A stretch of 64,000 bases of DNA from an uncultured Nitrospiraceae bacterium (GCA_963706325.1 CAVPLT010000001.1:480001-544000); one strand, 5' to 3'; numbered from the stretch's first letter, positions 23,059-47,191 are shown. A program made the numbers and translations. The notes: generated by a model from the letters alone, not told the origin.

Positions 23059-23310
23059 ACACCGGCGGGATCATCGAGAAAAACAACAACGGCCACTTTC
23101 CTGCGCCCTGTGGCGCCCGATTGCCGACCGGCTCCCGGAATTTTTCTTGCATTCTTCGCCCTTCACAGCTAGATCTAACACAGTTTTTCGGTGGTGCCGT
23201 CCAGCGGTCGTGACTCATGCGCGACCTGGACCCACGTGTGTGTTAATGCAATGAGACAGGCAGTATGGTCTTGCCGGTGGTTCCCCCGCGGGAAAGGCCG
23301 GGGACAGTGC

Positions 23311-23363
23311 AGGCCAGTCGTTGGTCCTTTTCTTAAGGACCGTCGGTTGGCCTTTTTCTTTTC
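23311..23363 (+). terminator. Intrinsic terminator about 20 nt upstream of the dabB start
   Basis: Stem AGGCCAGTCGTTGGTCCTT/AAGGACCGTCGGTTGGCCT (G-U pairs, one mismatch) followed by TTTTCTTTT. Confidence 0.75.
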
Positions 23364-23383
23364 ATGAGCCGAATGGATTCCGC

Positions 23384-25083
23384 ATGGTCTTGCTAGTGCT
23401 CGTGCCGCTCTTGCCACTGTTGACAGCGTTCATCGTGATGACCGGTCATCGCGCCGATCAAGATCAGACTGCGAAGGCCGGCCTGTTCCCTATCGTCGCC
23501 GCCTTCGTTGGGGCGCTCGTCACTCTGGTGCTCGTGCCCTCCGAGGGGGCTATCACGGTACAATTCTATGACCCGGCCGCCATGGCCAATCTCGCCTTTC
23601 CCATCGGATTCTACATCGACCGGCTGAGCGCGGTCATGATGGTCCTGATTTCGGGAGTGACCGCGCTCATCTATCGCTACTCGGTGGGCTACATGTACCA
23701 AGATCGCGGCTATCGCCGATACCTCGGGCTACTCGGCATCACCACCTCGGTACTACTCTGCATGGTGTGCAGCGCCAATCTGGTGATGTTATTTATGTTT
23801 TGGCAAATTCTTCCCTGGCTTCTCTTTCTCGCTGGCGCACAACCACGGGCATGTCGCGACGCTCGCGGGCGCCTCCAACACCTTTACGCTCTTGCGCCTC
23901 GGCGACGTGGTCTTTCTCGCCGGGATTGTGCTGGCCTATTCGCTCTATGGCACCTTCGAGTTTCAGGCGCTGTTCGCTCGCGCCGCGGAGATTCCCGTGA
24001 CCCTGTCTCTCTGGCCTGCTCTGGCTGGGAAATGGACGGCGTCACGGCGGTGACCTTGCTCATTTTCGTCGGCGCCATGAGCAAGTCGGCTCAGTTCCCG
24101 CTCCATACGTGGCTTCCACGATCGCTCTATGCGCCGACGCCGGTCCACGCGCTGCTGCATGCCGGCATCATCAACGCGGGAGGCTTTTTACTGAACCGAC
24201 TCGCCCCGCTCTATGGTCTGAGTCCCGACCACGCTTGCACGTCGTATTCCTCATCGGCATGCTGACCGCCATTCTCGGCGCGACTATGATGTTGACCCAG
24301 AACGACATCAAGAAGACGCTCGGCTTTTCGACCATCGGCCAGATGGGCTACATGATTATGGAATGCGGGTTGGGCGCGTTTTCCCTCGCCGTGTTCCATC
24401 TCATCGCGCACGGACTGTTCAAGGGCTACCGTCTTTTTGAACTGCGGCAACGTGATTCATAAGGCCCGACAAGAACCCTCGTTCCCGCAGGCCGGTCACG
24501 AGGCGGAAGACAGCCAGATTCTCCAACCTGACCTGGTCCACCGGATTCGTGACGACGCTCCTCTTGCCGCTCGTGATCCTCTTGGTCACGCATGGCATCT
24601 TGAGAATTCCGCTGCTGGAATCGCAGGGGACCGTGATCTTTCTGTTCTTTATCTGGGTCACGTCCTCGCAGGCCATTCTGTCATTGACGCGCATTCGCGC
24701 CGTCGCGTCCTGGAAGGTGTCCGCCGCCATGCTGCTTACGCTCATCTTCGTCCTGTTCACCTACCTGTTCGCGGTCGAGAGCTTCACGCATTTCCTTTAC
24801 CCCGATCCCGATGAGGTGGCGTCGTACTTTCGAGGCCGCGGCATTGCCGGGCCGGCTCTTCGATCGCCTGGTGTCGGGCACGACGTTGTTGACGTCCTCG
24901 GCTGGTTTTACGTCTATGCCCATGCGCATGGGCGGACGATCCGCATGCCAGCCTGGATTGAAGGGTCTTCTGACTCGTCTGTATGTCCTGTTTATGAATC
25001 GACTCTATCTCGACGCAGCTGTATTTCAAACTCGGCCGGGTCGTGACGCTGGTCGCCCATCGGCTGGAGAAACGGTCTCGTGA
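23384..25083 (+). CDS. dabB: DabB-like (NuoL/ND5 family) membrane subunit of inorganic carbon pump; several frameshifts
   Basis: IDRLSAVM, KSAQFPLHTWLP, APTPVHALLHAG, QNDIKKTLGFST, HLIAHGLFK found across successive frames; in operon with DUF2309. Confidence 0.85.
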
Positions 25084-25143
25084 CGATGTCCGCACCAGGA
25101 ACGCACACGTCAGCGATCCGCTATGCCTGGCCGGAGGCCGGTC

Positions 25144-26468
25144 ATGATACAGGCTTGGATGACGCCCTGGCTTCTCGTCGCCATTCCGTGCCCTCGGCGC
25201 GGTCCTCAGCCTGCTCTGGTGGTCCTCGCTTCACCGGATGAAAACCTGGGGCGCTCACTCACCGCGATGGCGAGCTTGCTCGCGTGATGGCCCTGTCGTG
25301 GGTGCAGGACCGAGTCGCTCGCCGGCATGCCGTTACTCTGCCTGCTCCCATTGACGGCGTTCCTCTCGCTGCTTGGGACAGCCGCTGCACCCGGATAACC
25401 GCGCTGGCCTGGTCTGTCGACGTTGGTGCTGTTGGGATTGGGATTGGGAATTCTGACCGGTCAGGAACTGCCTCGCAGCTTCATGCTTGTCATCCTTCTT
25501 GGGCTTTTCTGCGGCTTGCATCTCTCGTTCGCGGAATGGCGCCTCCCTGAAGTCTGGCGAGCGCTGGCGATCCTACGGCCTGGGCATGGCCTCGGCCATG
25601 CTGTCCCTGGTTCTCCCGAGCACCGGCGTCCACAGTCGCTGTCCTGGTCACCTGTGCGACCCTCCTCCCTCTGTTTCCTCTGCACGGAGGATTCGTCGCG
25701 AGCCCTCACCGGATTGCCGGGCAATCTTCCCGCGTTTGCAGTCGTGCTGTTGCCCGTGGTCGGCTTTCACAGCCTCCTGCTAGGCTGCTTCCGAACCTGA
25801 CCGGAGCGATGCTTCCAACTCGTGACCATTCTGGCGCTGGTGGGCGCCTGTTATGGTTCGCTCCTGGCATGGATCAGTCACGCGTCCTCTCTCGCCTCGC
25901 CTACGCAGGCCTTGCCTTCTTGTCAATACTCTGGTGGTATGTCGCAGGCACGGGAACTGCGCCCGTGCAAACCACTGGTGTACCTCAGCGCCGTCGGCCT
26001 CGCGATGAGCGGGCTTTTGCTCGCCTGGTACTCGATTCGGGCTCGCTACGGCGACATCGACGTGCGCTCGCTTGGCGGCATTGGCTTACCCTATGCCGCG
26101 CTTCAGTACCCTGCTGTCGTTGCTGGCACTCGCGGCCCTCGGCATGCCGCCCTTCGGTGTCTTTTCCGGCTTCATGGGCATGCTGCTCAATCCTGCCTTC
26201 TCTCCTTCGGGACCGTTCGCCGTCATCATGCTCGTCTGGCTCAGCGCATCCTGGTACTTTCTGGATACTGGTGCAATCGGTTGGTCTTCGGCCGGCAACG
26301 GCCGGATCTGCGGTATGAAGACCTGCACCAGACGGAATTCGCGTCTCTCCTGATGCTGCTGGTTCTCCTGTTGGCCCTCGGCATCGCTCCCTTCTCGACT
26401 CTTTCAGTCGAACGCCACCACTCCATCGGAGGCTGTGGCGATCAAGGCTGCCGACATGGATCCAGTAG
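25144..26468 (+). CDS. Second, degenerate antiporter-like (NuoM/MrpD-like) membrane subunit; several frameshifts
   Basis: GGAGG RBS; fragments LPLFPLHGG, LAYAGLAFLS, GxLAYPMPRF, LAALGMPPFGVFSGF; boundaries approximate. Confidence 0.7.
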
Positions 26469-29400
26469 ACACAACGGACCACAGACCGGACCTCGAAGCG
26501 CGACGTATGGAGTTGCGGGGAATGATTCGCCTCGCCAGCGAGGTGATCGCCCAATACTGGCCCATGCGGACGTTCGTCCACCACAATCCGCTGCATAGCC
26601 TGGAGTATCTTCCGTTCACTGAGACGGTTCGTCGCGGCCAACAGTTCTTGGGAGGGCAGCGGCTATCTTCCGGGTGAACGTGTATCGACGCTATCTGAAG
26701 TCCGGCAGGATTCAGGTCCCCACATCGAGGAAGCATTGGCTCCGCTGGCGCGTGATCAGGAAGTGACCCTCGGACCCTGCAGCATTTCGCACCGTGAGGT
26801 GTTGCGGGCCTGCATGACACACGGACTGTCCACGTCCATGCACGAACCGCTCGATCCTCTGATGAGACGCGAGCCGAATGAGGAGCAAATCGAAGCTCTG
26901 GCCGAGCGCTTGGTTCCTTTTCGCGCCGACCGTCAAGGAACGCATGACCACCACGGTCCGCGAGGACTGTGGCCGCGTTGGGACGACAATTGACCCTCAC
27001 GGTTGGTGCGATCAAACGCTCGGCACCCAGATCGTGAACCAGATCAACGGCGAGTTGATCAAGTGGTGTGAGGCCTTTCTGGACGAGGGACATGCCACCT
27101 GGTCGATGCCTGGGACGGGAACAGGGTCTCTACGCGGCGTGGAAACGACTGGCGGTGAAGCGAATGGACGACTTGCGGTATCGCGGAGAGTCGCCGGAAA
27201 ATTGCATCCGCTGTCCGGAGCATCCCGAGGACACGGTGTTTGACTGCCTCGAAGCGTTGGCGATTCCCGCGGAGTTCCGTCACGATTACCTCTCGCTCCA
27301 ACTCGCCGCCCTTCCCGGTTGGGCTGGATTCATCAAATGGCGTGCGGAAGAGGACGCGCTATGCCTGGCAACAGGCCTATCCCGTCGGACTGGTCAAGTT
27401 TCTCGCTGTCCGCTTGTGGTACGTGCGCGAACTGGTCCAGAAAGTTTGCCAAGAAGAATTGGGTATCGAGGGAAACTATCGCGCGAGTCTCAACCTATAT
27501 GGAAGCAGCATCCCCATGCCTACTTCATGCGTAAGGAACAGGCCGCGGGACGGTTGCCGCCCGTCTATGCCGAACGAGTCGATCGCCTCCATGCCCAGAC
27601 GCAGCAGGACGCCAGGCGATCGGCAGCCTTGTCGCACGAGTGGGAACAGCTCACGCAGCAGTACCAGATGGAATTCGGATCGCCATCGCGAGCAGGCCGC
27701 GCGCCGAGTCATGGCCCGACGTCTCCTCACTCTCGCCCACGCGCTCGAGATCGTGCCCAGCCGTGTTGATGGAGGTTCCCCGACCGACCTTCGCGTGCTC
27801 GTGGATTGGATGGAGGCCTTTCCGGAATCGGCCCATGGCCCCGTGTGGCTCAAGGCCTTCGAAGCAGGATATCAGGACCATCTGTTCGGCATGCTGCTGC
27901 GCGCGTCGGCCAAGCCCCAACCGGCCGGTCCCGGAACATCAACCGCCGGTGCGGCCCCATTCGCAATCGGTCTTTTGCATTGACGTCCGGTCTGAGCCAT
28001 TCCGCCGCCATTTGGAATCGACCGGCGCAAACGATACGTATGGATTCGCCGGATTCTTCGCAGTCTTCATTCGGTATCGAGCATGGGGCAAGGAACATGA
28101 AACGGAGCAGTTTCCGGTGATCATGCGCGCGAAGAACGAAGTACGCGAGATCCCCCGCAGCTATCTGGATCACTACGTGTCTCAAGCACCAGTCACGGGC
28201 CAAACTCGTCCATGCCGGACATACCCTGTTGCATGATCTCAAGGAAAATGTCGTCACGCCGTACGTCATGGTGGAGTCGATCGGGTGGTTCTACGGCTTA
28301 CCCATTGTCGGGAAGACGGTGCTTCCCGCACTGTACAAACGTATCACCGACTGGGTGCGGCGTCTGTTTGTGCCGCCGATCGCCACCAGCGTCACGGTGG
28401 ACAAATTCGCCCCGGCCGAGACCGAAGAGATGCTGGTCGCCGAACAACGCGCGCTGATATGGAAGGCACTGCGCGATCGGCTCAGTCTCCATGGATCGCG
28501 GGTCGATCCCGAGTTCGTCGAAGCGTTACGACGGCGGGCACTGGACGAGGATGCGCCGGTCGAGCCCTTCTTGAGCAACGCGGCCAAGTCCGTCGGATCT
28601 GTCTGTGCAGAGCAGCTGACGGCGTTTCTCGAGGAACTCCGGGGGCACTACCGGATCAATCGCCGCGCGGCTTCTCGCCAGAAAGAACGGATTACGCGCA
28701 CCGGGTTCACCATCGAGGAGCAGGTCATCACCGTTGAAACCGCCTTGCGCATGATGGGCTTGATCAGGAACTTCGCGCGGCTCGTGCTGTTCTGCGCGCA
28801 CGGAAGCACCGACCGAGAACAACCCGTTCGAATCGGCCCTGGACTGCGGCGCCTGCGGAGGGACACGAAGGGAAACCCAATGCGCGTGTGCTGGCGGCGA
28901 TGGCAAATCGACCGCCGGTCCGAGAACGGCTGACAAGGCGTGGCATCGAGATTCCATCGGATACGCACTTTCGTCGCCGGACAGGTGGACACGACGACCG
29001 ATGAGGTGCAGCTGTTTGATCTCGAAGATGTGCCGCCGACACACCGCAAGGACGTGCGCCCGGTTGCTTGATGACTTGCGAGAAGCCGCCCAATTGACGA
29101 GCCAAGAGCGCTGCACGCGTTTCCCGGATGTCGAACGCCATCCTACCGGTTGCCCGAGGCGCGTCTCTGTGGACGGCCGGAGCGCAGACTGGAGCCAGGT
29201 GCGGCCCGAGTGGGGCCTCTCCAGCAATACGGCCTTCATCATCGGCCGACGAGATCTGACGAAAGGACTCAACCTGTCCGGACGCGTCTTTCTGCACTCC
29301 TACGATTATCGCGAAGATCCGACCGACCGTTGCTCGAAGTGGTGCTGACGGCGCCGCAAGTGGTGGCGCAGTGGATCAATATGGAACATTATTTTTCAGC

Positions 29401-29741
29401 CGTGGACAATGATGTGTACGGAAGCGGCAGCAAGATTTACCACAACGTGGTCGGGCGCGTCGGCGTCATGTCCGGTCCGTGGAGCGATCTCCGACTCGGG
29501 CTGGCGTGGCAGACCGTCATGAACGACGAGCTGCCCTACCACGAACCGATGCGCCTCCTGACGCTGGTCGAGGCGTCGCGCGCGCGCATCGAGATACTCA
29601 TCGCACGACATGAGGTGCTGCAACATTTTTATCACAACGAGTGGGTACACCTGGCCGACACTGGACCCGGAGGACGGAACGTGGTACCGCTATGTACCGT
29701 CCGGTTTCTGGCGTCGGGTCAGGAATCCGGCGGATACGTGA
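26456..29741 (+). CDS. dabA: DabA (DUF2309/UPF0753) beta-carbonic-anhydrase-like subunit; many frameshifts
   Basis: YWPMRTFVHHNPL, LPGWAGFIKWR, FCIDVRSE, GFAGFF, HGS...ALDCGAC (Zn ligands), DWSQVRPEWGL, FLHSYDY, YHEPMRL. Confidence 0.9.
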
Positions 29742-29796
29742 GGCACGGGCTAGACATCATCGTGTAAGATTAGGCTTTTTTCAAAGGAGTTGACAT

Positions 29797-30138
29797 ATGG
29801 GCGGACTGACGTTGCATCCCATGAAAGAAATCCGTGTGATCGTGTCGGGTGACAACCGCCCTTCGTGACCGAGCTGTTGGATAGAGTGGAGGCCACCGGA
29901 TACACCATCATCGGCAATATCTCCGGGAAGGGCCATCATGGCGTGCGAGAGGCCCACTTCATGTTCAGCGAACAGGAGAGCCTGGTCATGATCATGACGG
30001 TCGTGCCGGAAGAAAAGGTGGAACCGATGCTCGCCGGGCTGCGACCGCTATTCGAACGATACTCAGGCGTCATGTTCGTCTCTGACGTGACCGTGAGCCG
30101 GCGTGAGTACTTCGGCGAAGAAGGCGCCCAAGTCCTGA
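29797..30138 (+). CDS. PII-like (SbtB-type) regulator; two frameshifts
   Basis: AAGGAG RBS; MGGLTLHPMKEIRVIV...ATGYTIIGNISGKGHHG...GVMFVSDV. Confidence 0.8.
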
Positions 30139-30373
30139 GTCCACCGTCCCGGACCCCGCTCCTATCAGAGCTCGCGCGACGATGGGCTGAACCTTGTCTT
30201 TGTAGTACTGATTGTCTACAATGTGCGCGGCTTGACCTGTAAGAGGAAGGACAGGACGTGAAGGGACTTACGGTTCGAACGGCTCGGACGAAACCGCCAT
30301 TACAATATCATTTTCCACATCGGCAGCAGCTATGTACCGGTAAGCGATGACACTATCGAAGAACTTAAGTCCC

Positions 30374-30580
30374 AATACTCTACTGTCTTCTGAACGCTTC
30401 CTCGAACTCCTCGTCGACAAAATCGGTTACTCCAGCTACCTGAAGGCCCAGATCCGCTCAGAACTCCAAATCGCCGGCGATCCGATGACTCAGATTACGG
30501 TCCTGCAAGGCGCCATTCGGGAACTGTAACGCGCGTCCCTCGTCCATTCTCACCATCCGTATATTCTCAACCTTCAATGA
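30374..30580 (+). repeat. Copy 1 of duplicated gene 3' end (...LKAQIRSELQIAGDPMTQITVLQGAIREL*) plus downstream sequence
   Basis: Aligns by eye with 31277-31483. Confidence 0.75.
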
Positions 30581-31626: not shown

Positions 31627-31655
31627 TTGATCCCAAATTGGGATCATGGTAGACT
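31627..31655 (+). promoter_or_regulatory. higBA promoter with overlapping palindromic operator
   Basis: TTGATC-17 bp-TAGACT; perfect inverted repeat TGATCCCAA-A-TTGGGATCA at 31628-31646. Confidence 0.75.
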
Positions 31656-31660
31656 GCCCC

Positions 31661-31954
31661 GTGCGCATCATCGCGAAGCGGACTCTAGGCACATTCTGGA
31701 ATCGGTACCCGCGCGCGCGAGGACCTTTAGAAGCCTGGCATCAGGAAGTGGTTCATGCAGACTGGACAAGCCCGTCGGAGCTTAAAGCTCAGTTTCGCTC
31801 AGCGAGTGTGCTGCAAGGCAGCCGCGCGGTGTTCAACATTGCAGGGAACCAGTACCGATTGGTGGTGAAGATTAACTACGCCTATCGGATTGTCTATATC
31901 CGTTTCGTCGGCACCCATCAAGAGTATGACCAGATCGATGTACACACCGTCTGA
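31661..31954 (+). CDS. higB: HigB toxin (RelE superfamily mRNA interferase)
   Basis: MRIIAKRTL, VFNIAGNQYRLV, IRFVGTHQEYD. Confidence 0.92.
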   Translation: MRIIAKRTLGTFWNRYPRARGPLEAWHQEVVHADWTSPSELKAQFRSASVLQGSRAVFNIAGNQYRLVVKINYAYRIVYIRFVGTHQEYDQIDVHTV

Positions 31955-31969
31955 CAAGGTGCAGAAGCC

Positions 31970-32329
31970 ATGAATATTTCTCCTATCAAAACCAAGCGGG
32001 ATCATGAGCGCGCATTGCTCCGCATCGAACACCTGATGGATGCAAAGCTCGGCACCAAAGCCGGAGATGAGTTGGACATTCTCACCACCCTCGTGGAAGC
32101 CTACGAGGCCAAGCATCATGCAGTCAGTCCACCTGATCCCGTTGAAGCGATTCGATTTCGGATGGAACAATTAGGCATGAGCCGGAAGGATTTGGAGGCA
32201 TTGCTCGGAGGGCGAGGCCGAGTCTCTGAAATTCTCTCTAAAAAACGCGGCCTCTCACTGACTATGATTCGTCGAATCCATCGCACACTCCACATTCCAC
32301 TCGAAAGCCTGATTGGCACAGCGGCGTAG
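31970..32329 (+). CDS. higA: HigA antitoxin (HTH)
   Basis: LVEAYE, PDPVEAIRFRMEQ, RVSEILSKKRGLSLTMIR. Confidence 0.92.
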   Translation: MNISPIKTKRDHERALLRIEHLMDAKLGTKAGDELDILTTLVEAYEAKHHAVSPPDPVEAIRFRMEQLGMSRKDLEALLGGRGRVSEILSKKRGLSLTMIRRIHRTLHIPLESLIGTAA

Positions 32330-32521: not shown

Positions 32522-33442
32522 TCATTCGAGGTCTTCTTCGAAGAAGTCCGAGTCCACTCTTTTGATTTCATACGTCGAGGCGATAGACACACCCACATCG
32601 TGATCAATCATATAACCTGCTAACTGAGTGCCGCCGATGAGGATGATTCGAGAGGAGTATACCGACGCCAATGCATCTCTGGTGAATGTAGATGTGGTGA
32701 TGAAGATGCCTTTGGTTGCCTTCATTTTTGACAGCGCGCCGGCGAATTGATCAATGTCCGGGCTGCCCACCGGCTTGTCGTTCCACCGTTTTGCTTGAAT
32801 ATAGATATTGTCCAGCCCGAGCTTATCTTGGCGAATCACTCCATCGACTCCCCCATCTTTGCTCTTGCCCACAGCTTGACCAGCGTCCTTGAGTGAGCCC
32901 CCGTATCCCATTCGGACCAGTAACAGGATGACGAGTCGTTCGAAGAACTGAGGGCTGCATTTTTTCACCCTTTCGAGAACTTCCGATGCAAGAGCTTCTC
33001 GCAACCGCTCGTATTGGGTTGCTAACGATTCGATTGGCGTCTCGGCAGAGCCTGGGGCTTGGATTTCGACTTTATCCGTTCTACGATCCTTCTTGCGTCC
33101 CTGGAACTCCCGGAACTCCTCGAACTGCGACAGAAGGCTTCCATCGATGCGGACCGGTTTATTCTTGAGAACAGCCCGCCCACGATCAGTAACGCGGAAA
33201 TGTCCTCGCTTCGTTGCTTCAAGGAGACCGGCCTTTTGTAGATATGTACGAGCCCATGAAACACGGGAAGAGAATTTGAAGGTCCCCCCGCTCGGGAGAA
33301 GCTCATGCCGATCCTCGGTAGTCAGCTTGAACTGTACAGCCAATTGTTCAACGGCGACAACGAGCGGAACCTCCTGTCCATTCGCCTCCCCGGCGATCTG
33401 TAACAGAGGAAGCATTAGGGTTTCGTAGTCTGGAATTCCCAT
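32522..33442 (-). CDS. mrr: Mrr family type IV restriction endonuclease
   Basis: MGIPDYETLMLPLL, WARTYL, SPQFFERLV, DGGVDG, YIQAKRW, KGIFITTS. Confidence 0.9.
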   Translation of the reverse strand: MGIPDYETLMLPLLQIAGEANGQEVPLVVAVEQLAVQFKLTTEDRHELLPSGGTFKFSSRVSWARTYLQKAGLLEATKRGHFRVTDRGRAVLKNKPVRIDGSLLSQFEEFREFQGRKKDRRTDKVEIQAPGSAETPIESLATQYERLREALASEVLERVKKCSPQFFERLVILLLVRMGYGGSLKDAGQAVGKSKDGGVDGVIRQDKLGLDNIYIQAKRWNDKPVGSPDIDQFAGALSKMKATKGIFITTSTFTRDALASVYSSRIILIGGTQLAGYMIDHDVGVSIASTYEIKRVDSDFFEEDLE

Positions 33443-33888
33443 GGTCACATAAGGCGAAGGTTGAGCGGGAACCATGCTGGATCAGCCATTGGCATTCGCC
33501 TCAATACCTCACCACTCTTTGTCTTTGAGTTTATCCAACTCTTCAGGGTAAGCCGGAAGTCGAGGCTTGTGGATTTTTTTAAACAGGTTCTCGATTTCAT
33601 ACACTCCTGAATCTTCTCAAATCATCCGTTTCGCTCTACATACATATGGCAGACCCCCTTCTCGGCAATTTCGCATTCTCGAGGATCTTCGATCGACAAA
33701 ACATCCTCGGCGCCCATGAAAGCCACTACGCAAGTGCGTGGCCTCTTTGTTCGATCGCGCGCATTGAGAGAACACCGCCACATAACTCCTCAGAGGATCT
33801 GAGGTGATATGCTTCCACTGCGCACGTCGACCGAGGTCCTTCCCGGAGCGCGCGGTCCGCGAGCAAGGAAGCACATCGCCTCGGGTCC

Positions 33889-39403: not shown

Positions 39404-40738
39404 ATGTGGAATGATGTTCTCGCATACATTCATGAAAAGGTGCCGAAGCAGGTTTATGAAACCTGGTTCACGCCGGTGGTCCTGGATCGCATTGAAGATA
39501 CGACGGCGTATTTGGCCGTGCCGAATAAATTTTTCGGAGATTGGTTAGACGAGCACTATCGCGATCTTTTGACGGAAGCCGTCTCTGTCGCACAGGGTGG
39601 CGGCCACCTCGATGTCTCATTCGTCATCAACAATAGGAAGACTCCTTCGCCGGTTCAACAGGACGGTGCCGCGCCGGATACCGCAGGACGAGGCTTCGTG
39701 GCTTCTCGATCGAAGCGCGGCGTCCAGTTAAATCCCAAGTACACCTTCAAAAGCTTTGTAGTGGGAGCCGGAAACCAGTTTGCCCATGCGGCCTGTATGG
39801 CTGTGGCCGAACAACCGGCAAAAGCCTACAACCCATTGTTTCTGTACGGTGGTGTGGGATTGGGGAAAACCCATCTCTTAAATGCCATTGGAAACTATTT
39901 GGCTGAACGGAGCGACCTACGCATCGCCTACCTGACCACCGAACAATTTACCAACGAGGTCATCAACTCGATTCGTTACGACAAGATGATCGACCTCCGG
40001 AAGCGTTATCGTAGCGTCGATATGCTGATGATCGACGACATTCAGTTTTTGGCCGGTAAAGAGCGCACACAGGAGGAATTCTTTCATACCTTCAATACTC
40101 TCTATGAGGCGCGGAAACAGATTGTTCTCTCGAGCGATCGTTTTCCCAAGGATATGCCGGATATCGAAGAACGGCTGCGCTCACGCTTCGAATGGGGGCT
40201 GATTGCTGACTTGCAACCCCCAGACGTCGAGACAAGAATTGCGATCCTGCGGAAGAAATCAGAGGACGAGCGAATAGCCTTGCCCGAAGACGTGATTCAT
40301 TTCTTGGCCATCACGATGAAGAACAACATTCGTGAATTGGAAGGCTCTCTCGTGCGCGTCGGGGCCTATTCGTCGCTGACGGGGCAAGTCATCACGCTCG
40401 AGATGGCGAAGAACGTGTTGCGTGACCTCATCGGCGACAAGAAGAAGATTGTTTCGATCGAAGACATTCAGGAGGCGGTAGGTACGAAGTATCATTTGAA
40501 GATCGTCGATTTGAAGTCGCGCCGCCGCAGCAAAACACTCGTGCACCCGCGCCAGATCGCCATGTATCTTTGTCGAGAACTCACCGACGCCTCATTTCCT
40601 GAAATCGGGCGTCAGTTCGGTGGCAAGGACCATACGACGATCATTCATGCTTGCCGGCAGATTACGAAGGCCAAAGAGGCCGACAGCACCTTGCAGACCA
40701 CGCTGGAAGGCTTGAAGGAACAGATCCTGAGAGCGTAG
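39404..40738 (+). CDS. dnaA: Chromosomal replication initiator DnaA
   Basis: YNPLFLYGGVGLGKTHL, IDDIQF, QEEFFHTFN, GGKDHTTI. Confidence 0.98.
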   Translation: MWNDVLAYIHEKVPKQVYETWFTPVVLDRIEDTTAYLAVPNKFFGDWLDEHYRDLLTEAVSVAQGGGHLDVSFVINNRKTPSPVQQDGAAPDTAGRGFVASRSKRGVQLNPKYTFKSFVVGAGNQFAHAACMAVAEQPAKAYNPLFLYGGVGLGKTHLLNAIGNYLAERSDLRIAYLTTEQFTNEVINSIRYDKMIDLRKRYRSVDMLMIDDIQFLAGKERTQEEFFHTFNTLYEARKQIVLSSDRFPKDMPDIEERLRSRFEWGLIADLQPPDVETRIAILRKKSEDERIALPEDVIHFLAITMKNNIRELEGSLVRVGAYSSLTGQVITLEMAKNVLRDLIGDKKKIVSIEDIQEAVGTKYHLKIVDLKSRRRSKTLVHPRQIAMYLCRELTDASFPEIGRQFGGKDHTTIIHACRQITKAKEADSTLQTTLEGLKEQILRA

Positions 40739-40763
40739 GCGCATTCTTTAGGGAGAGTTCGAC

Positions 40764-41894
40764 ATGAAGGTACGAATCGGGCGAGAGGAACTATTGACGG
40801 GCCTGCAACGGGTGCAGGGGGTCGTCGAAAAGCGGAACACCATGCCGATCCTCTCGAACATTCTGTTGGAAGCCAAACACGAGGGCGCTGAGATTGTGGC
40901 GACCGACTTGGAGATCGGGATGCGGGGCCTCTACAAAGCGACGGTCCTGGAGGCCGGCGGCGTCACCATTTCTGCGCGCAAGTTATATGAGATCATCAAA
41001 GAATTGCCCAATGGTGAAATCGAACTCACCTCGGGCGATAACAACTGGACCACGATTCAAGCCGGAAAGAGTCAGTTCAAAGTCGTCGGCCTTCCCAGCG
41101 GCGATTATCCTGCGTTGCCTTCCATTGAGCGGGAAGGCCTGACACCGCTGGCCGGTGCGGGGTTGTTGGAATTAATCCGCAAAACCCTATTCGCCGCCGG
41201 AGACAATGATGCTCGATATATTCTGAACGGCCTGCTGGTAAGCCTGACGACCACTGAAAATAAAACCACCCTGTTGCGCCTCGTCGGCACCGACGGTCAT
41301 CGCTTGGCGGTGGCGGAGCGCGAGGTCGGAACGGCCGGAGCCAAGCAACCGGCGCAAGACATCAAAGCGATCATTCCGAAGAAGGCCGCCCAGGAAATGA
41401 AGCGCCTTCTGGAAGAAGGAGGCGACGCCGAGCCGTTGATCGGTTTCACGAAAAACCTCATGATTTTTCGAAAGAGCGGTCTCCTTCTCACTTCTCGCCT
41501 GATGGAAGGCAACTACCCGAACTATCAGCAGGTGGTGCCGAAAGAAAGCGGTCGGCGCATCGCGGCGAACCGGGGACTGCTGGAAAGCGCCTTACGACGG
41601 GTATCGGTGCTGTCGAAGGACAAGGCCAACGCCGTCAAGGTGACCTTTTCGCCAGGCGGCATGACACTCTTCTCGAGTAATCCGGATTATGGAGAAGCCA
41701 CGGAAGAACTGGTGGCCCAATACGAAGGCGAGGCGCTCAACACCGGATTTAACGCCCGTTACCTCCTGGACGCCCTCAGCGTCATGGATGGAGAATCGGT
41801 CTCGTTACAAATGGACACCGCATTGAGTCCCTGTCTGATCCAGGAAGCCGAGAGTCCGGGATTCAAGTGCGTGGTCATGCCGATCAAGATCTAG
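40764..41894 (+). CDS. dnaN: DNA polymerase III beta clamp
   Basis: PILSNILL, ATDLEI, GTDGHRLA, GFNARYL, VVMPI. Confidence 0.97.
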   Translation: MKVRIGREELLTGLQRVQGVVEKRNTMPILSNILLEAKHEGAEIVATDLEIGMRGLYKATVLEAGGVTISARKLYEIIKELPNGEIELTSGDNNWTTIQAGKSQFKVVGLPSGDYPALPSIEREGLTPLAGAGLLELIRKTLFAAGDNDARYILNGLLVSLTTTENKTTLLRLVGTDGHRLAVAEREVGTAGAKQPAQDIKAIIPKKAAQEMKRLLEEGGDAEPLIGFTKNLMIFRKSGLLLTSRLMEGNYPNYQQVVPKESGRRIAANRGLLESALRRVSVLSKDKANAVKVTFSPGGMTLFSSNPDYGEATEELVAQYEGEALNTGFNARYLLDALSVMDGESVSLQMDTALSPCLIQEAESPGFKCVVMPIKI

Positions 41895-41910
41895 CAACAC
41901 ATGCCGTTAC

Positions 41911-42035
41911 ACAGGATGCCTAAAATGGCCGTTCGACAAGGCCGCTGCGAGTGGGGGGCTGAGGCGTATCCGTGCGGTACGTTGAGGGCCTGCGCGATGC
42001 GCGAATGCCGCCGGTGGACATTTGCGGGATTCTGT
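41911..42035. repeat. ~125 bp intergenic inverted-repeat element (REP/MITE-like)
   Basis: ACAGGATGCC...GGCCGC...GAGGCGTA..GGTACGTTGAGG...GGATTCTGT; homologous to 44593-44716. Confidence 0.8.
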
Positions 42036-42045
42036 TAGGAGTTGA

Positions 42046-44549
<2,504 letters not shown>

Positions 44550-44592
44550 CAAATCCTGCTCTAACAGCAGGGAACTTGTTTCTGTGCATTCG

Positions 44593-44716
44593 ACAGGATG
44601 CTCAAAATGGTCATCCGGCGCGGCCGCAGGCGAGAGAGGCCCGGAGGCGTACTCTCGCGGGTACGTTGAGGACTCCTTGATCCGAGAACGAAGCTGGGGA
44701 CCACTTTCAGCATCCG
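44593..44716. repeat. ~125 bp intergenic inverted-repeat element (REP/MITE-like)
   Basis: GGATGCTCAAAATGG / CCACTTTCAGCATCC termini; central GAGGCGTAC..GGTACGTTGAGG. Confidence 0.8.
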
Positions 44717-44731
44717 TGACGTGGAGGATAG

Positions 44732-47191
44732 ATGCCGCCAGATGAACGCCTAGGACAGATTGCGATCGAAGACGAGATGCGCTCGTCCTATCTCGACTAT
44801 GCGATGAGTGTGATCGTCGGGCGCGCGCTACCCGATGTGCGGGACGGCCTCAAGCCGGTGCATCGACGGATTTTGCACGGCATGAATGAAATGGGGCTCG
44901 CCGCGAATCGGCCCTATCGCAAGTCGGCCAAGATCGTCGGCGAGATCATGGGTAATTACCATCCCCATGGAGACTCGGCGATCTACGACACACTCGTGCG
45001 CATGGCGCAGAACTTCAACATGCGCTACATGCTGGTCGACGGACAGGGAAACTACGGCTCGATGGACGGCGATGCCGCAGCGGCCATGCGGTACACCGAA
45101 GCGCGTTTGACCAAATTGGCCGAAGAACTGCTGGCGGATATTGATAAGGAGACGGTCGATTTCGGGCCCAATTACGACGAGTCTCTCGTAGAGCCGCTTG
45201 TCCTGCCCTCCAAGGTGCCGAATCTTCTGGTCAACGGCGCGGGCGGCATCGCGGTCGGCTATGCTACGAACATTCCCACGCACAATCTGGGCGAGGTCAT
45301 CGAAGGACTGCTCCTGCTGCTTGATGATCCCGAGGTCACTATTGCCCAGTTGATGAAGAAAATACCCGGCCCTGATTTCCCAACGGCCGGATTTATTTAC
45401 GGGACCGCCGGAATCAAAGACGCCTATGAGACCGGACGCGGGTTACTGACCGTCCGTGCTAAGGTCGCCATCGAGACGGATGAACGCACCGACCGGGAAC
45501 GACTCATCGTCACGGAAATTCCCTATCAGGTGAACAAGTCGAAGCTGATCGAGAAGATCGCCGATCTGGCGCAGGAAGATCGCGTGACGGGTATCTCCGA
45601 CATCCGCGACGAGTCGGATCGTGAGGGCGTTCGCGTGGTGATCGAGCTGAAACGGAATGAGATTCCCCTCGTGGTCCTGAATAACCTCTATAAACATAGT
45701 CAGTTGCAGACCACGTTCGGTGTGAACATGCTGGCGTTGGTCAATAATCGGCCGGAAGTGCTGAACCTCAAGCGGATTCTCGTCGCCTTCGTTGAGCATC
45801 GGCGCGAGGTCGTCGTGCGGCGGACGTCTTATGATCTTCGCAAGGCGGAGGAACGCGCCCATATCCTTGAAGGCCTCAAGATCGCGCTGGATAATCTGGA
45901 TGCCGTCATCGCCCTCATCCGGCGCTCGCAATCTCCGGATGTCGCCCGCACCGGCTTGATGCAACAGTTTCAGTTGTCGGAACTGCAGGCGAACGCCATT
46001 CTGGAGATGCGCCTGCAGCGGCTCACCCAGCTGGAGCGCAATAAGCTGATCGAGGAGTATCGCGAGGTACTGAAGCAGATTGAATATCTGCGGTCGATCC
46101 TGGGCAGCGAGGCGCTGGTGCGCCAAATCATCCGCAATGAATTGACCGAGATCAAAGACAAGTATCAGGACGAGCGTCGCACGAAGATCGTGAAGGAAGA
46201 AGCCGAGCTGACGCTCGAGGACCTGATCGCCGAAGAAGAAGTGGTGGTCACGATTACGCACACCGGCTACATCAAGCGAAATGCGGTCACCCTCTATCGT
46301 GCGCAACGGCGAGGGGGCAAAGGCAAGATCGCGATGGGCATTAAAGAAGAGGATTTCGTCGAAACCCTCTTCACTGCGTCCACGCACGATTCTCTGCTGT
46401 TCTGTACCGATGCCGGCAAGGTCTATTGGCTCAAGGTGCACGAAATTCCCGAGGCGAGTCGAGCTGCAAAGGGAAAAGCGCTGGTAAACCTTTTGGCCCT
46501 CTCGAAGGACGAGAAAGTCACGGCCTCGCTTCCGGTAAAAGAATTCCGTGCGGATCGCTTTATCATCATGGCGACCAAGCTGGGCATCATTAAAAAGACC
46601 GAATTGTCGGCCTATAGCAATCCGCGCCAGGGCGGCATTATCGCGCTCACGCTCGATCCGGGTGACAAGCTGATCGGGGTCGATTTGACCGATGGCCAGC
46701 GAGAAATTCTGTTAGGCACCAAACAAGGCATTACCATTCGCTTCAAAGAGGAAGATGTGCGGCCCATGGGCCGTACCGCCCACGGTGTGCGTGGGATCAC
46801 GCTGGAGTCCGGCGACGAGGTCATTGGGATGGAGACCATCACGCCAGACTCGACGACCGCGATCCTGACCGTGACTGAATGCGGTTATGGGAAGCGGACA
46901 CCGGTGAACGAATACCGCGTGCAGGGACGCGGCGGGAAAGGCATTATCAGCGTCAAGACGACGGAGCGCAACGGACCGGCGGTCGGGTTCCTCCAAGTCC
47001 GTGATGAAGATGAAATCATGTTGATGGCGGCTCAGGGAAAAGTACTGCGCTGTAAGGTGGACGACATCCGCGAAATCGGACGCAATACCCAAGGCGTCCG
47101 CTTGCTGGATATGGATGGCGATGAAGATCGCGTGGTCGCCGTGGCGCGTCTGGTCGAACGTGAAGAAGCGATGCCCGACGAAGGTGAATAG
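44732..47191 (+). CDS. gyrA: DNA gyrase subunit A
   Basis: YHPHGDSA, AAMRYTE, GyrA-box QRRGGKG. Confidence 0.98.
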   Translation: MPPDERLGQIAIEDEMRSSYLDYAMSVIVGRALPDVRDGLKPVHRRILHGMNEMGLAANRPYRKSAKIVGEIMGNYHPHGDSAIYDTLVRMAQNFNMRYMLVDGQGNYGSMDGDAAAAMRYTEARLTKLAEELLADIDKETVDFGPNYDESLVEPLVLPSKVPNLLVNGAGGIAVGYATNIPTHNLGEVIEGLLLLLDDPEVTIAQLMKKIPGPDFPTAGFIYGTAGIKDAYETGRGLLTVRAKVAIETDERTDRERLIVTEIPYQVNKSKLIEKIADLAQEDRVTGISDIRDESDREGVRVVIELKRNEIPLVVLNNLYKHSQLQTTFGVNMLALVNNRPEVLNLKRILVAFVEHRREVVVRRTSYDLRKAEERAHILEGLKIALDNLDAVIALIRRSQSPDVARTGLMQQFQLSELQANAILEMRLQRLTQLERNKLIEEYREVLKQIEYLRSILGSEALVRQIIRNELTEIKDKYQDERRTKIVKEEAELTLEDLIAEEEVVVTITHTGYIKRNAVTLYRAQRRGGKGKIAMGIKEEDFVETLFTASTHDSLLFCTDAGKVYWLKVHEIPEASRAAKGKALVNLLALSKDEKVTASLPVKEFRADRFIIMATKLGIIKKTELSAYSNPRQGGIIALTLDPGDKLIGVDLTDGQREILLGTKQGITIRFKEEDVRPMGRTAHGVRGITLESGDEVIGMETITPDSTTAILTVTECGYGKRTPVNEYRVQGRGGKGIISVKTTERNGPAVGFLQVRDEDEIMLMAAQGKVLRCKVDDIREIGRNTQGVRLLDMDGDEDRVVAVARLVEREEAMPDEGE

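Follow-up and report, generated by a model that had tools for sequence, protein, structure and literature searches.

A DAB1-type inorganic carbon pump operon of Nitrospira with a likely full-length, charge-stripped DabC, and the probable assembly errors that break its frames in one record

The DAB1 pump of Thermocrinis albus has been solved as a DabA/DabB/DabC heterotrimer (Phillips et al., PNAS 2026, PMC13684180 = bioRxiv 10.64898/2026.05.01.722082). As described there, DabC is a small, non-pumping protein, roughly half as large as NuoM and assigned to no Pfam family, whose helices can be aligned to those of NuoM that adjoin NuoL, giving a structural match to part of NuoM. The same report describes hydrophobic residues at NuoM's hydrophilic or charged positions, the absence of a water chain, and a requirement for DabC in the rescue of carbonic-anhydrase-free Escherichia coli. 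In Halothiobacillus neapolitanus, DAB1 is made up of hneap_0907 (DabA1), hneap_0908 (a small membrane protein) and hneap_0909 (DabB1), according to 10.64898/2026.03.13.711513; DabA1 has 1046 amino acids (aa) there, and a P-II gene is described in the same operon. Here, we describe an operon of this type in a stretch of 64,000 nucleotides from an uncultured Nitrospiraceae bacterium (GCA_963706325.1 CAVPLT010000001.1:480001-544000; hereafter, the window), in which a gene for a NuoM-like membrane protein lies between dabB and dabA and a PII-like gene follows (Table 1). We consider it likely that the locus encodes a DAB1-type pump predicted to hydrate CO2 to bicarbonate via proton flow through DabB, with the middle subunit serving as a non-pumping scaffold and the frame breaks in this record being sequencing errors.

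The limits of the four genes were set by alignment with the intact orthologous operon of a relative (G014) and give the same span, 23384-30138, as the initial annotation, which had been made from the sequence alone. That annotation took the architecture to be uncharacterised, on the premise that characterised pumps combine one NuoL-like subunit with a DUF2309 protein; the premise fails on DAB1, which is a DabA/DabB/DabC heterotrimer (PMC13684180). We therefore regard the DAB1 architecture as already characterised in essence, since the heterotrimer has been published and the same gene order occurs on a plasmid of Nitrobacter hamburgensis, and what is new is the probable full-length DabC. Our literature searches, from which the supplementary information of PMC13684180 was excluded, returned no description of a full-length NuoM-like DabC or of this operon in Nitrospira.

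With respect to DAB1 of T. albus and H. neapolitanus, the Nitrospira operon shares the third membrane gene between dabB and dabA, the long DabA (~1105 aa here), a NuoM-like third subunit that is hydrophobic at NuoM's charged sites, and the P-II gene. It differs in that its third subunit has 436 aa, folds like a whole NuoM and scores over the PF00361 cut-off, which sets it apart from the published description, and in that the host fixes carbon without carboxysomes. Plasmid 1 of Nitrobacter hamburgensis X14 (NC_007959.1 263298-276103, locus L114) carries two tandem, near-identical DAB1-type operons, each with the shared order of dabB (565 aa), a 253-aa membrane protein gene overlapping the dabA start, dabA (1037 aa) and a P-II gene (108 aa). 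The 253-aa protein lacks the N-terminal ~160 residues of the Nitrospira subunit, and the DabA proteins are 36% identical. The 253-aa and P-II genes carry the same protein accessions in both Nitrobacter operons.

The two-subunit pumps of the DAB2/MpsAB/DAC kind (DabA2-DabB2, PDB 9rd0) have in common with this operon the DabA zinc site, the NuoL-like DabB and a predicted proton-coupled vectorial hydration of CO2, but they have no third membrane subunit, a layout that is found, with PII added, in the second DAB operon of this same genome. DabA2 is also shorter (827 aa), and its alignment with the Nitrospira DabA is limited to four separate stretches. In complex I (NuoL-NuoM) and in NDH-1MS (NdhF3-NdhD3-CupA), L-type and M-type antiporter-like genes likewise stand side by side, with lateral packing as is predicted here, and the antiporter-like pair of NDH-1MS also carries a CO2-hydrating protein. 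The gene order of NDH-1MS is reportedly F3-D3-cupA, parallel to dabB-dabC-dabA. In contrast to these complexes, the Nitrospira operon has no redox module and its M-type subunit is stripped of charged residues; the soluble partner is DabA (PF10070) here and CupA in NDH-1MS, with no search having been aimed at CupA. DabB scores 131.8 bits on the NdhF3 model TIGR01960, far below the cut-off of 588.7.

The hidden Markov model searches proposed with the initial annotation recovered all the expected families from fragments of the window: Proton_antipo_N (PF00662) and Proton_antipo_M (PF00361) at 23255-24459, pieces of PF10070 (DabA) at 26354-29764 that together span profile positions 2-747, and P-II (PF00543) at 29853-30239 (64 bits). 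Intact orthologues match more strongly, with 887 bits on PF10070 for DabA, 164 bits on PF00361 and 60 bits on PF00662 for DabB, and 79 bits on PF00543 for the PII protein. The residues C351, D353, H524 and C539 of the DabA2 zinc site, which are needed for function (10.1101/476713), are all identical in the Nitrospira DabA (alignment to 9rd0_A). The best solved relatives of DabB are NdhF and NuoL (up to 4e-63), with DabB2 (9rd0_B) at 7e-33. DabB keeps the Lys of transmembrane helix 7 (TM7), the His of TM8 and the later Lys, as had been proposed, and carries Gln at the position of the TM5 Glu of NdhF (FWQ against FWE). We rejected FWQ as a special feature of this DabB, because three DabB lineages have Q, H or F there and the substitution is not peculiar to this operon.

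The closing gene was first called PII/SbtB-like, of which the PII part stands and the SbtB part does not: no solved structures other than 5d4n and 5d4l (3e-32) match it at E<=1e-3, and we take these to be CPII, a bicarbonate-regulated, carboxysome-associated PII-like protein. This identification reportedly goes back to the work of Wheatley et al. in 2016 on CPII proteins. Sequence comparison places the PII protein nearest to the CPII type and not to GlnB, GlnK or SbtB. The conserved zinc site and the CPII-type gene that closes the operon both speak against the view that the main role of the cluster is ion or membrane-potential homeostasis, as in an Mps/Mrp-like cation pump, rather than inorganic-carbon uptake. 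That view draws on the membership of DabB and the middle subunit in the Mrp/complex I antiporter superfamily and on the first description of MpsAB as a membrane-potential-generating system (PMC6689103); however, the related DAB1, DAB2 and MpsAB systems rescue carbonic-anhydrase-free E. coli (PMC6689103 for MpsAB), and we consider homeostasis as the main role very improbable.

The middle gene, initially put at about 440 codons overlapping the dabA start, has 436 codons and a 16-base overlap in the intact orthologue. The encoded protein scores 35.4 bits on PF00361, above the cut-off of 21.5, and 78.1 bits on the NuoM model TIGR01972, below the cut-off of 263.8 and with the alignment limited to residues 161-419. 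Its best solved relative is E. coli NuoM (phmmer, 1e-9), and a profile of 39 family sequences searched against the PDB places ND4/NuoM (2e-20) ahead of ND2/NuoN and MrpD. The AlphaFold2 model (predicted local distance difference test [pLDDT] 93.1, predicted template modelling score [pTM] 0.91) has its best Foldseek matches in ND4/NuoM/NdhD over the full length (TMq 0.80-0.86, ~470-500 alignment columns). This full-length match points to a whole M-type antiporter-like subunit with the antiporter-like 14-helix fold.

We observe that the charged residues of NuoM are lost from this subunit. All motifs quoted in the initial annotation (CATLLPLFPLHG, VVLLPVVG, FSGFMG, SKSAQ, LLHAG, GLFK and FWQ) are present in the window translations, and those of the middle subunit do face charged NuoM motifs: E. 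coli NuoM FAVKMPVVPLHG is aligned to CATLLPLLPLHG, and NuoM GNFVGEF to GVFSGFL. K234, K265, H322, H348 and E407 of NuoM face L, a gap, F, V and F, respectively. None of the helices has a conserved Asp, Glu, Lys or Arg across the 39 aligned family members; the conserved charges (K32, R125, R236, R296, R314, D387 and E392) lie at helix ends or in loops, and His177 of the PLH motif, kept in 34 of the 39 sequences, is the sole conserved residue of this kind in the membrane part. The NuoM-type Lys/Glu/His proton path is thus not conserved. With the five NuoM residues replaced or absent and no helix charge conserved in the 39 members, the loss of charge holds in intact orthologues and across the family, and since the Lys/Glu residues are missing in 39/39 sequences, it was not produced by errors in the window.

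The initial proposal of a non-pumping, NuoM-like scaffold subunit together with a PII-type regulator agrees with these data and with the published DabC of DAB1. We weighed it against an active middle subunit that translocates ions through unconventional residues (His177, backbone or water sites), or that carries another ion, which would give two working channels, like NdhF3/NdhD3. The whole antiporter-like fold is kept, including the broken helix around PLH, NdhD3 of NDH-1MS (6tjv_D) is among the fold matches (TMq 0.82), His177 is widely conserved, and Nitrospirota, Nitrospinota and Melainabacteria alike have the gene in an open, full-length form. However, all five alignable NuoM pathway residues are hydrophobic or absent, no acidic or basic residue is conserved in any helix of the 39 sequences, of the four proteins, the middle subunit evolves most rapidly (median identity, 52%), and the DabC structure as published has no water chain (PMC13684180). 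A second working channel thus seems quite improbable to us.

The middle subunit is likely a full-length DabC, an assignment that draws on its homology to the Nitrobacter protein in the DabC position and on the predicted contacts of its DabC-like part with DabB. Residues 164-407 align with residues 4-243 of the Nitrobacter 253-aa protein by hhalign (98.4%, E 6.5e-15); a pairwise BLASTP comparison of the two is marginal (7e-4). Complex prediction for DabB and the middle subunit gives a score of 0.77 versus 0.00 for the best of three controls (run contact agreement, >=82%; partner pLDDT, >=78), passing a mark that was reached by 116/157 solved complexes and 2/215 mismatched pairs; this pass may stem from the likeness of the pair to solved NuoL-NuoM. 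The confident contacts on the middle subunit all fall at residues 235-411, i.e., in the DabC-like part. Two points weigh against the assignment, namely that the link to DabC runs through a Nitrobacter protein defined by its position and size and that the middle subunit departs from two published descriptors of DabC, being of full NuoM size and above the PF00361 cut-off. A PDB search with the 39-sequence profile (E<=10) matched no DabC chain, the DAB1 structure lying outside the PDB copies searched (the Foldseek copy ends April 2026). As leads only, a protein Atlas holds clusters of ~260-aa PF00361 proteins in Nitrospirota and Pseudomonadota.

The operon is widely conserved within its lineage. 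The middle gene has DNA matches in 22 of the 24 other genomes of the genus, and the frames are intact in the five relatives examined (~564 aa for DabB, 436-447 aa for the middle protein and ~1092-1105 aa for DabA), with the dabB-region open reading frame (ORF) being longer when read from its first start codon in two of the five (G001 and G007; 672-680 aa). A search for related loci with one genome per species and nine closer sequences as the query gave 189 matches, of which we examined the best 80; all of these belong to Nitrospira, Nitrospiraceae or Nitrospirota, including Ca. Nitrospira defluvii. Among these best 80 of 189 loci, the order of the operon is constant, and the middle gene is accompanied by dabB in 76, by dabA in 78 and by PII in 69, with all misses at contig ends, so that the co-occurrence with dabA and dabB that had been expected of a true subunit is consistently observed. 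A single match free of stops covers 90% or more of the middle gene in 74 of the 80. Median identities among the loci are 52% for the middle subunit, 74% for DabB, 70% for DabA and 86% for PII.

Beyond these loci, a search of 1.84 billion representative proteins assigns 580 to the middle-subunit family at E<=1e-3, of which 73 also pass E<=1e-30, with named members from Nitrospira, Nitrospina/Nitrospinaceae and Melainabacteria. Seven proteins of 783-877 aa (P0023, P0033, P0039, P0065, P0073, P0075 and P0098) are fusions of DabB with the C-terminal ~290 residues of the long-DabC family, and two of the fusion clusters are named as Melainabacteria and Nitrospiraceae. Such DabB-DabC fusions are a third architecture beside the full-length and the short DabC. 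Some Nitrospiraceae have two tandem dabB genes before the long dabC, which makes a five-gene form of the operon (L061 3462-6956, L065 3469-6974 and L103 3446-6958).

None of the four genes is open in the window, where dozens of short ORFs run in all three frames. That the frames are broken had been recognised in the initial annotation, which advised their repair and understated the extent of the damage. When the block 23164-30531 was aligned with five congeneric genomes and only window-specific indels were counted, we found 66 indels, 60 of them inside the four genes. The 52 insertions are of one base in 45 cases, two in 6 and three in 1, and the 14 deletions are of one base in 13 cases and two in 1; the indels measure three bases at most and lie outside homopolymer runs, and insertions outnumber deletions by ~4:1. 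Indel density is ~9.9 per kb inside the block versus <=1.6 per kb in 26.2 kb of flanks. In a map based on two relatives, 73 indels not divisible by three fall in the 7.4-kb block versus 43 in 26.2 kb elsewhere in the window, the latter being mostly compensating pairs a few bases apart or intergenic near the replication origin. Compared with the same relatives, flanking genes show 0-6 gap openings per 0.9-1.6 kb, and SelO, the PALP-ACT gene and Mrr, all in the flanks, are open in the window.

We hold it very probable that the frame breaks in the four genes are assembly or sequencing errors and not gene decay, because the indel spectrum is small and insertion-biased, gyrB carries insertions too, and near-identical soil contigs lack the extra letters. 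In gyrB (42046-44680), which is open in four relatives (824-833 aa), window-specific one-base insertions at 43917 and 44280 split the gene into frames of 627 aa and 259 aa. Since no living cell can do without an intact copy of an essential gene, these insertions must be errors of the record, and they show that erroneous insertions in the assembly are not confined to the dab operon. Among the 32 soil-metagenome contig pieces listed as 97-100% identical to the window (13 more matches at >=97% exist), there is no gap-free crossing of any coding-region indel site. A piece covering 30081-30300 has 2 mismatches and 4 one-base gaps in 220 bases, six exactly matching soil contigs run loose at 25781, 25870, 26267, 28181, 28596 and 29657, all of which are indel sites, and contigs of lower likeness omit the same extra letters. 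Since the 97-100% identical contigs lack these letters at every site they reach, the indels are about as numerous as the substitutions relative to near-identical strains.

Several observations weigh against errors as the cause. The pile-up of indels coincides with exactly this operon, and a zone bounded by the operon (see the densities above, with open genes on its flanks) is what real pseudogenisation would give. Furthermore, the branch of the window carries ~140 extra substitutions that are spread fairly evenly over codon positions, so that third-position bias is weakened, and a second, intact dabB-dabA-PII operon without DabC at C1:83452-88729 could make this one dispensable. On these grounds, the operon could be a genuine pseudogene in this strain that decayed, through real indels, once the second DAB operon or a life at high CO2 made it dispensable. 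Bacterial gene decay is biased toward deletions, and toward larger ones. The spectrum here, with 52 insertions versus 14 deletions and nothing longer than three bases, is unlike such decay; the extra letters are missing from the 97-100% identical contigs, the essential gyrB shows the same kind of one-base insertion twice, and after frame correction, the operon is left with only 3 in-frame stops in 2222 codons. We therefore judge decay to be quite improbable.

A genome-wide Viterbi scan of codon usage gives the locus 15 same-strand frame switches per 8 kb, where the median is 3 and the 99th percentile 11. Genome-wide scans of long-ORF cover and of phase switching in the GC content of third codon positions did not flag the locus, both being too blunt. 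The top region of the Viterbi scan, at the end of contig C4, was set aside since it is not conserved in relatives and is uninformative on errors. Two contigs of long-read Nitrospira metagenome-assembled genomes have a few frame breaks in the same operon (L036 in dabB and PII; L103 in dabB and dabA). Broken dab genes in such metagenome-assembled records may often be assembly artefacts, and in practice, the operon in this record should not be scored as a pseudogene without a check of the reads.

Upstream of dabB, we observe a conserved leader RNA, with a core of ~107 bases inside a conserved stretch at 23189-23365 on the plus strand. The core reads GGC-GUAGGGU, a variable hairpin and ACAGURCAAGCC, and leads into the stem of an intrinsic terminator and a run of U; the core's GCC doubles as the 5' side of that stem. 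It is alignable in 57-62 Nitrospirota loci, for which 21 base pairs are predicted by RNAalifold; compensatory changes occur in 13 of these. A covariance model of the leader (R1) scores 85.9 bits here, the only credible copy in the genome; the next-ranked match (C6, 19 bits) falls within an ORF of 408 aa on the opposite strand and was taken as chance. Rfam returned no family at E<=1 for the leader, and the R1 model has no match before the second dabB-dabA-PII operon. The leader is a candidate attenuator or riboswitch for the DAB1 operon.

Table 1. Coordinates of the window and of the DAB1-type operon within it
Feature	Position	Strand	Remarks
Window source	G000:C1:480001-544000		4.2-Mb, 8-contig genome
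5' leader RNA, conserved	23256..23362	+	Ends 22 bases before the dabB start
dabB, NuoL/NdhF-like subunit, putative proton channel	23384..25083	+	Frameshifted here; orthologues 564 aa; limits from intact-orthologue alignment
Middle gene, likely full-length, charge-stripped NuoM-like subunit ("long DabC")	25144..26471	+	Frameshifted here; orthologues 436 aa
dabA, beta-carbonic-anhydrase-like cytoplasmic subunit, long DabA1-like form	26456..29793	+	~1105 aa; here ~10 frame pieces
PII-like regulator gene, CPII type	29797..30138	+	Orthologues 113 aa; two frameshifts here

The second DAB operon of the genome (G000:C1:83452-88729; L009 7453-12729) encodes DabB (572 aa), DabA (1089 aa) and PII (109 aa), with dabA overlapping dabB by 4 bases and no middle membrane gene. 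No RuBisCO or carboxysome genes were found within the 64-kb window, as had been noted initially. Genome-wide (96% complete), RuBisCO_large gives a single weak match (79 bits), presumably a RuBisCO-like protein as in Nitrospira, and no bacterial microcompartment shell genes were detected. A review states that "Nitrospirae" using the reductive tricarboxylic acid (rTCA) cycle typically encode carbonic anhydrases, dissolved inorganic carbon transporters or both. A search of sequencing runs listed no RNA run containing the sequence and no run matching half or more of the query words.

Elsewhere in the window, dnaA, dnaN, gyrB and gyrA lie at 39404-47191 and the cumulative GC skew has its minimum at ~34-38 kb, which indicates that the window spans the chromosomal replication origin, with the dab operon ~10-16 kb away. 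Just downstream of the operon, a HigB-toxin/HTH-antitoxin pair (31646-32329), adjoined by the Mrr restriction gene (32522-33475), is 96.6% identical to a copy in a relative (G021) whose surrounding genes are only ~78% identical to those of the window; this difference suggests a recently exchanged mobile toxin-antitoxin cassette. Between gyrB and gyrA, an element of ~122 bases (~44594-44716) recurs often at 70-83% identity in each of five Nitrospira genomes, the whole query around it giving 18-46 matches per genome, nearly all to this stretch. It looks like a dispersed intergenic repeat of the repetitive extragenic palindromic/miniature inverted-repeat transposable element (REP/MITE-like) kind.

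By analogy with published work on DAB1 and DAB2, proton flow through DabB would drive the conversion of CO2 to bicarbonate in the cytoplasm, with DabA acting as a vectorial beta-carbonic anhydrase coupled to DabB and DabC being required yet moving no protons. The middle subunit would stand beside DabB as a non-pumping scaffold, and adenine nucleotides and bicarbonate would be the signals by which the PII protein tunes the pump. The 160 additional residues at the N terminus may be what is left of the first helices of NuoM, in which case a NuoM/NdhD-like subunit would be the ancestor of DabC. Where an autotroph runs the rTCA cycle without carboxysomes, its bicarbonate pool could feed carboxylases and, via carbonic anhydrase, the CO2-using enzymes of the rTCA cycle, and the upstream leader with its terminator might set the expression of the operon.

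A more far-reaching joint reading can be offered as speculation, which we think unlikely to hold as a whole. In it, the full-size DabC would be, in place of an inert remnant, a NuoM whose former proton path now serves as a hydrophobic conduit bringing CO2 to DabA, and Nitrospira, Nitrospina and Melainabacteria would keep the ancestral two-antiporter form, the chemolithotroph counterpart of cyanobacterial NdhF3/NdhD3/CupA, from which both the short DabC and the minimal DAB pumps arose by reduction, with the terminator-coupled leader RNA switching the operon according to the inorganic-carbon state.

DAB pumps are a widespread means of bacterial CO2 capture and are candidates for the engineering of carbon uptake. 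DabC is required in DAB1, and a charge-stripped, full-length NuoM in the DabC position would be a sign, at the level of sequence, that DabC originated from the M-type subunit of complex I. The full-length DabC, the form fused to DabB and the short form of ~250 aa offer a natural series for testing which part is needed. For the organisms themselves, these results would mean that nitrite oxidisers of global importance, which rely on the rTCA cycle for carbon fixation and have no carboxysomes, possess a DAB1-type pump with a PII regulator.

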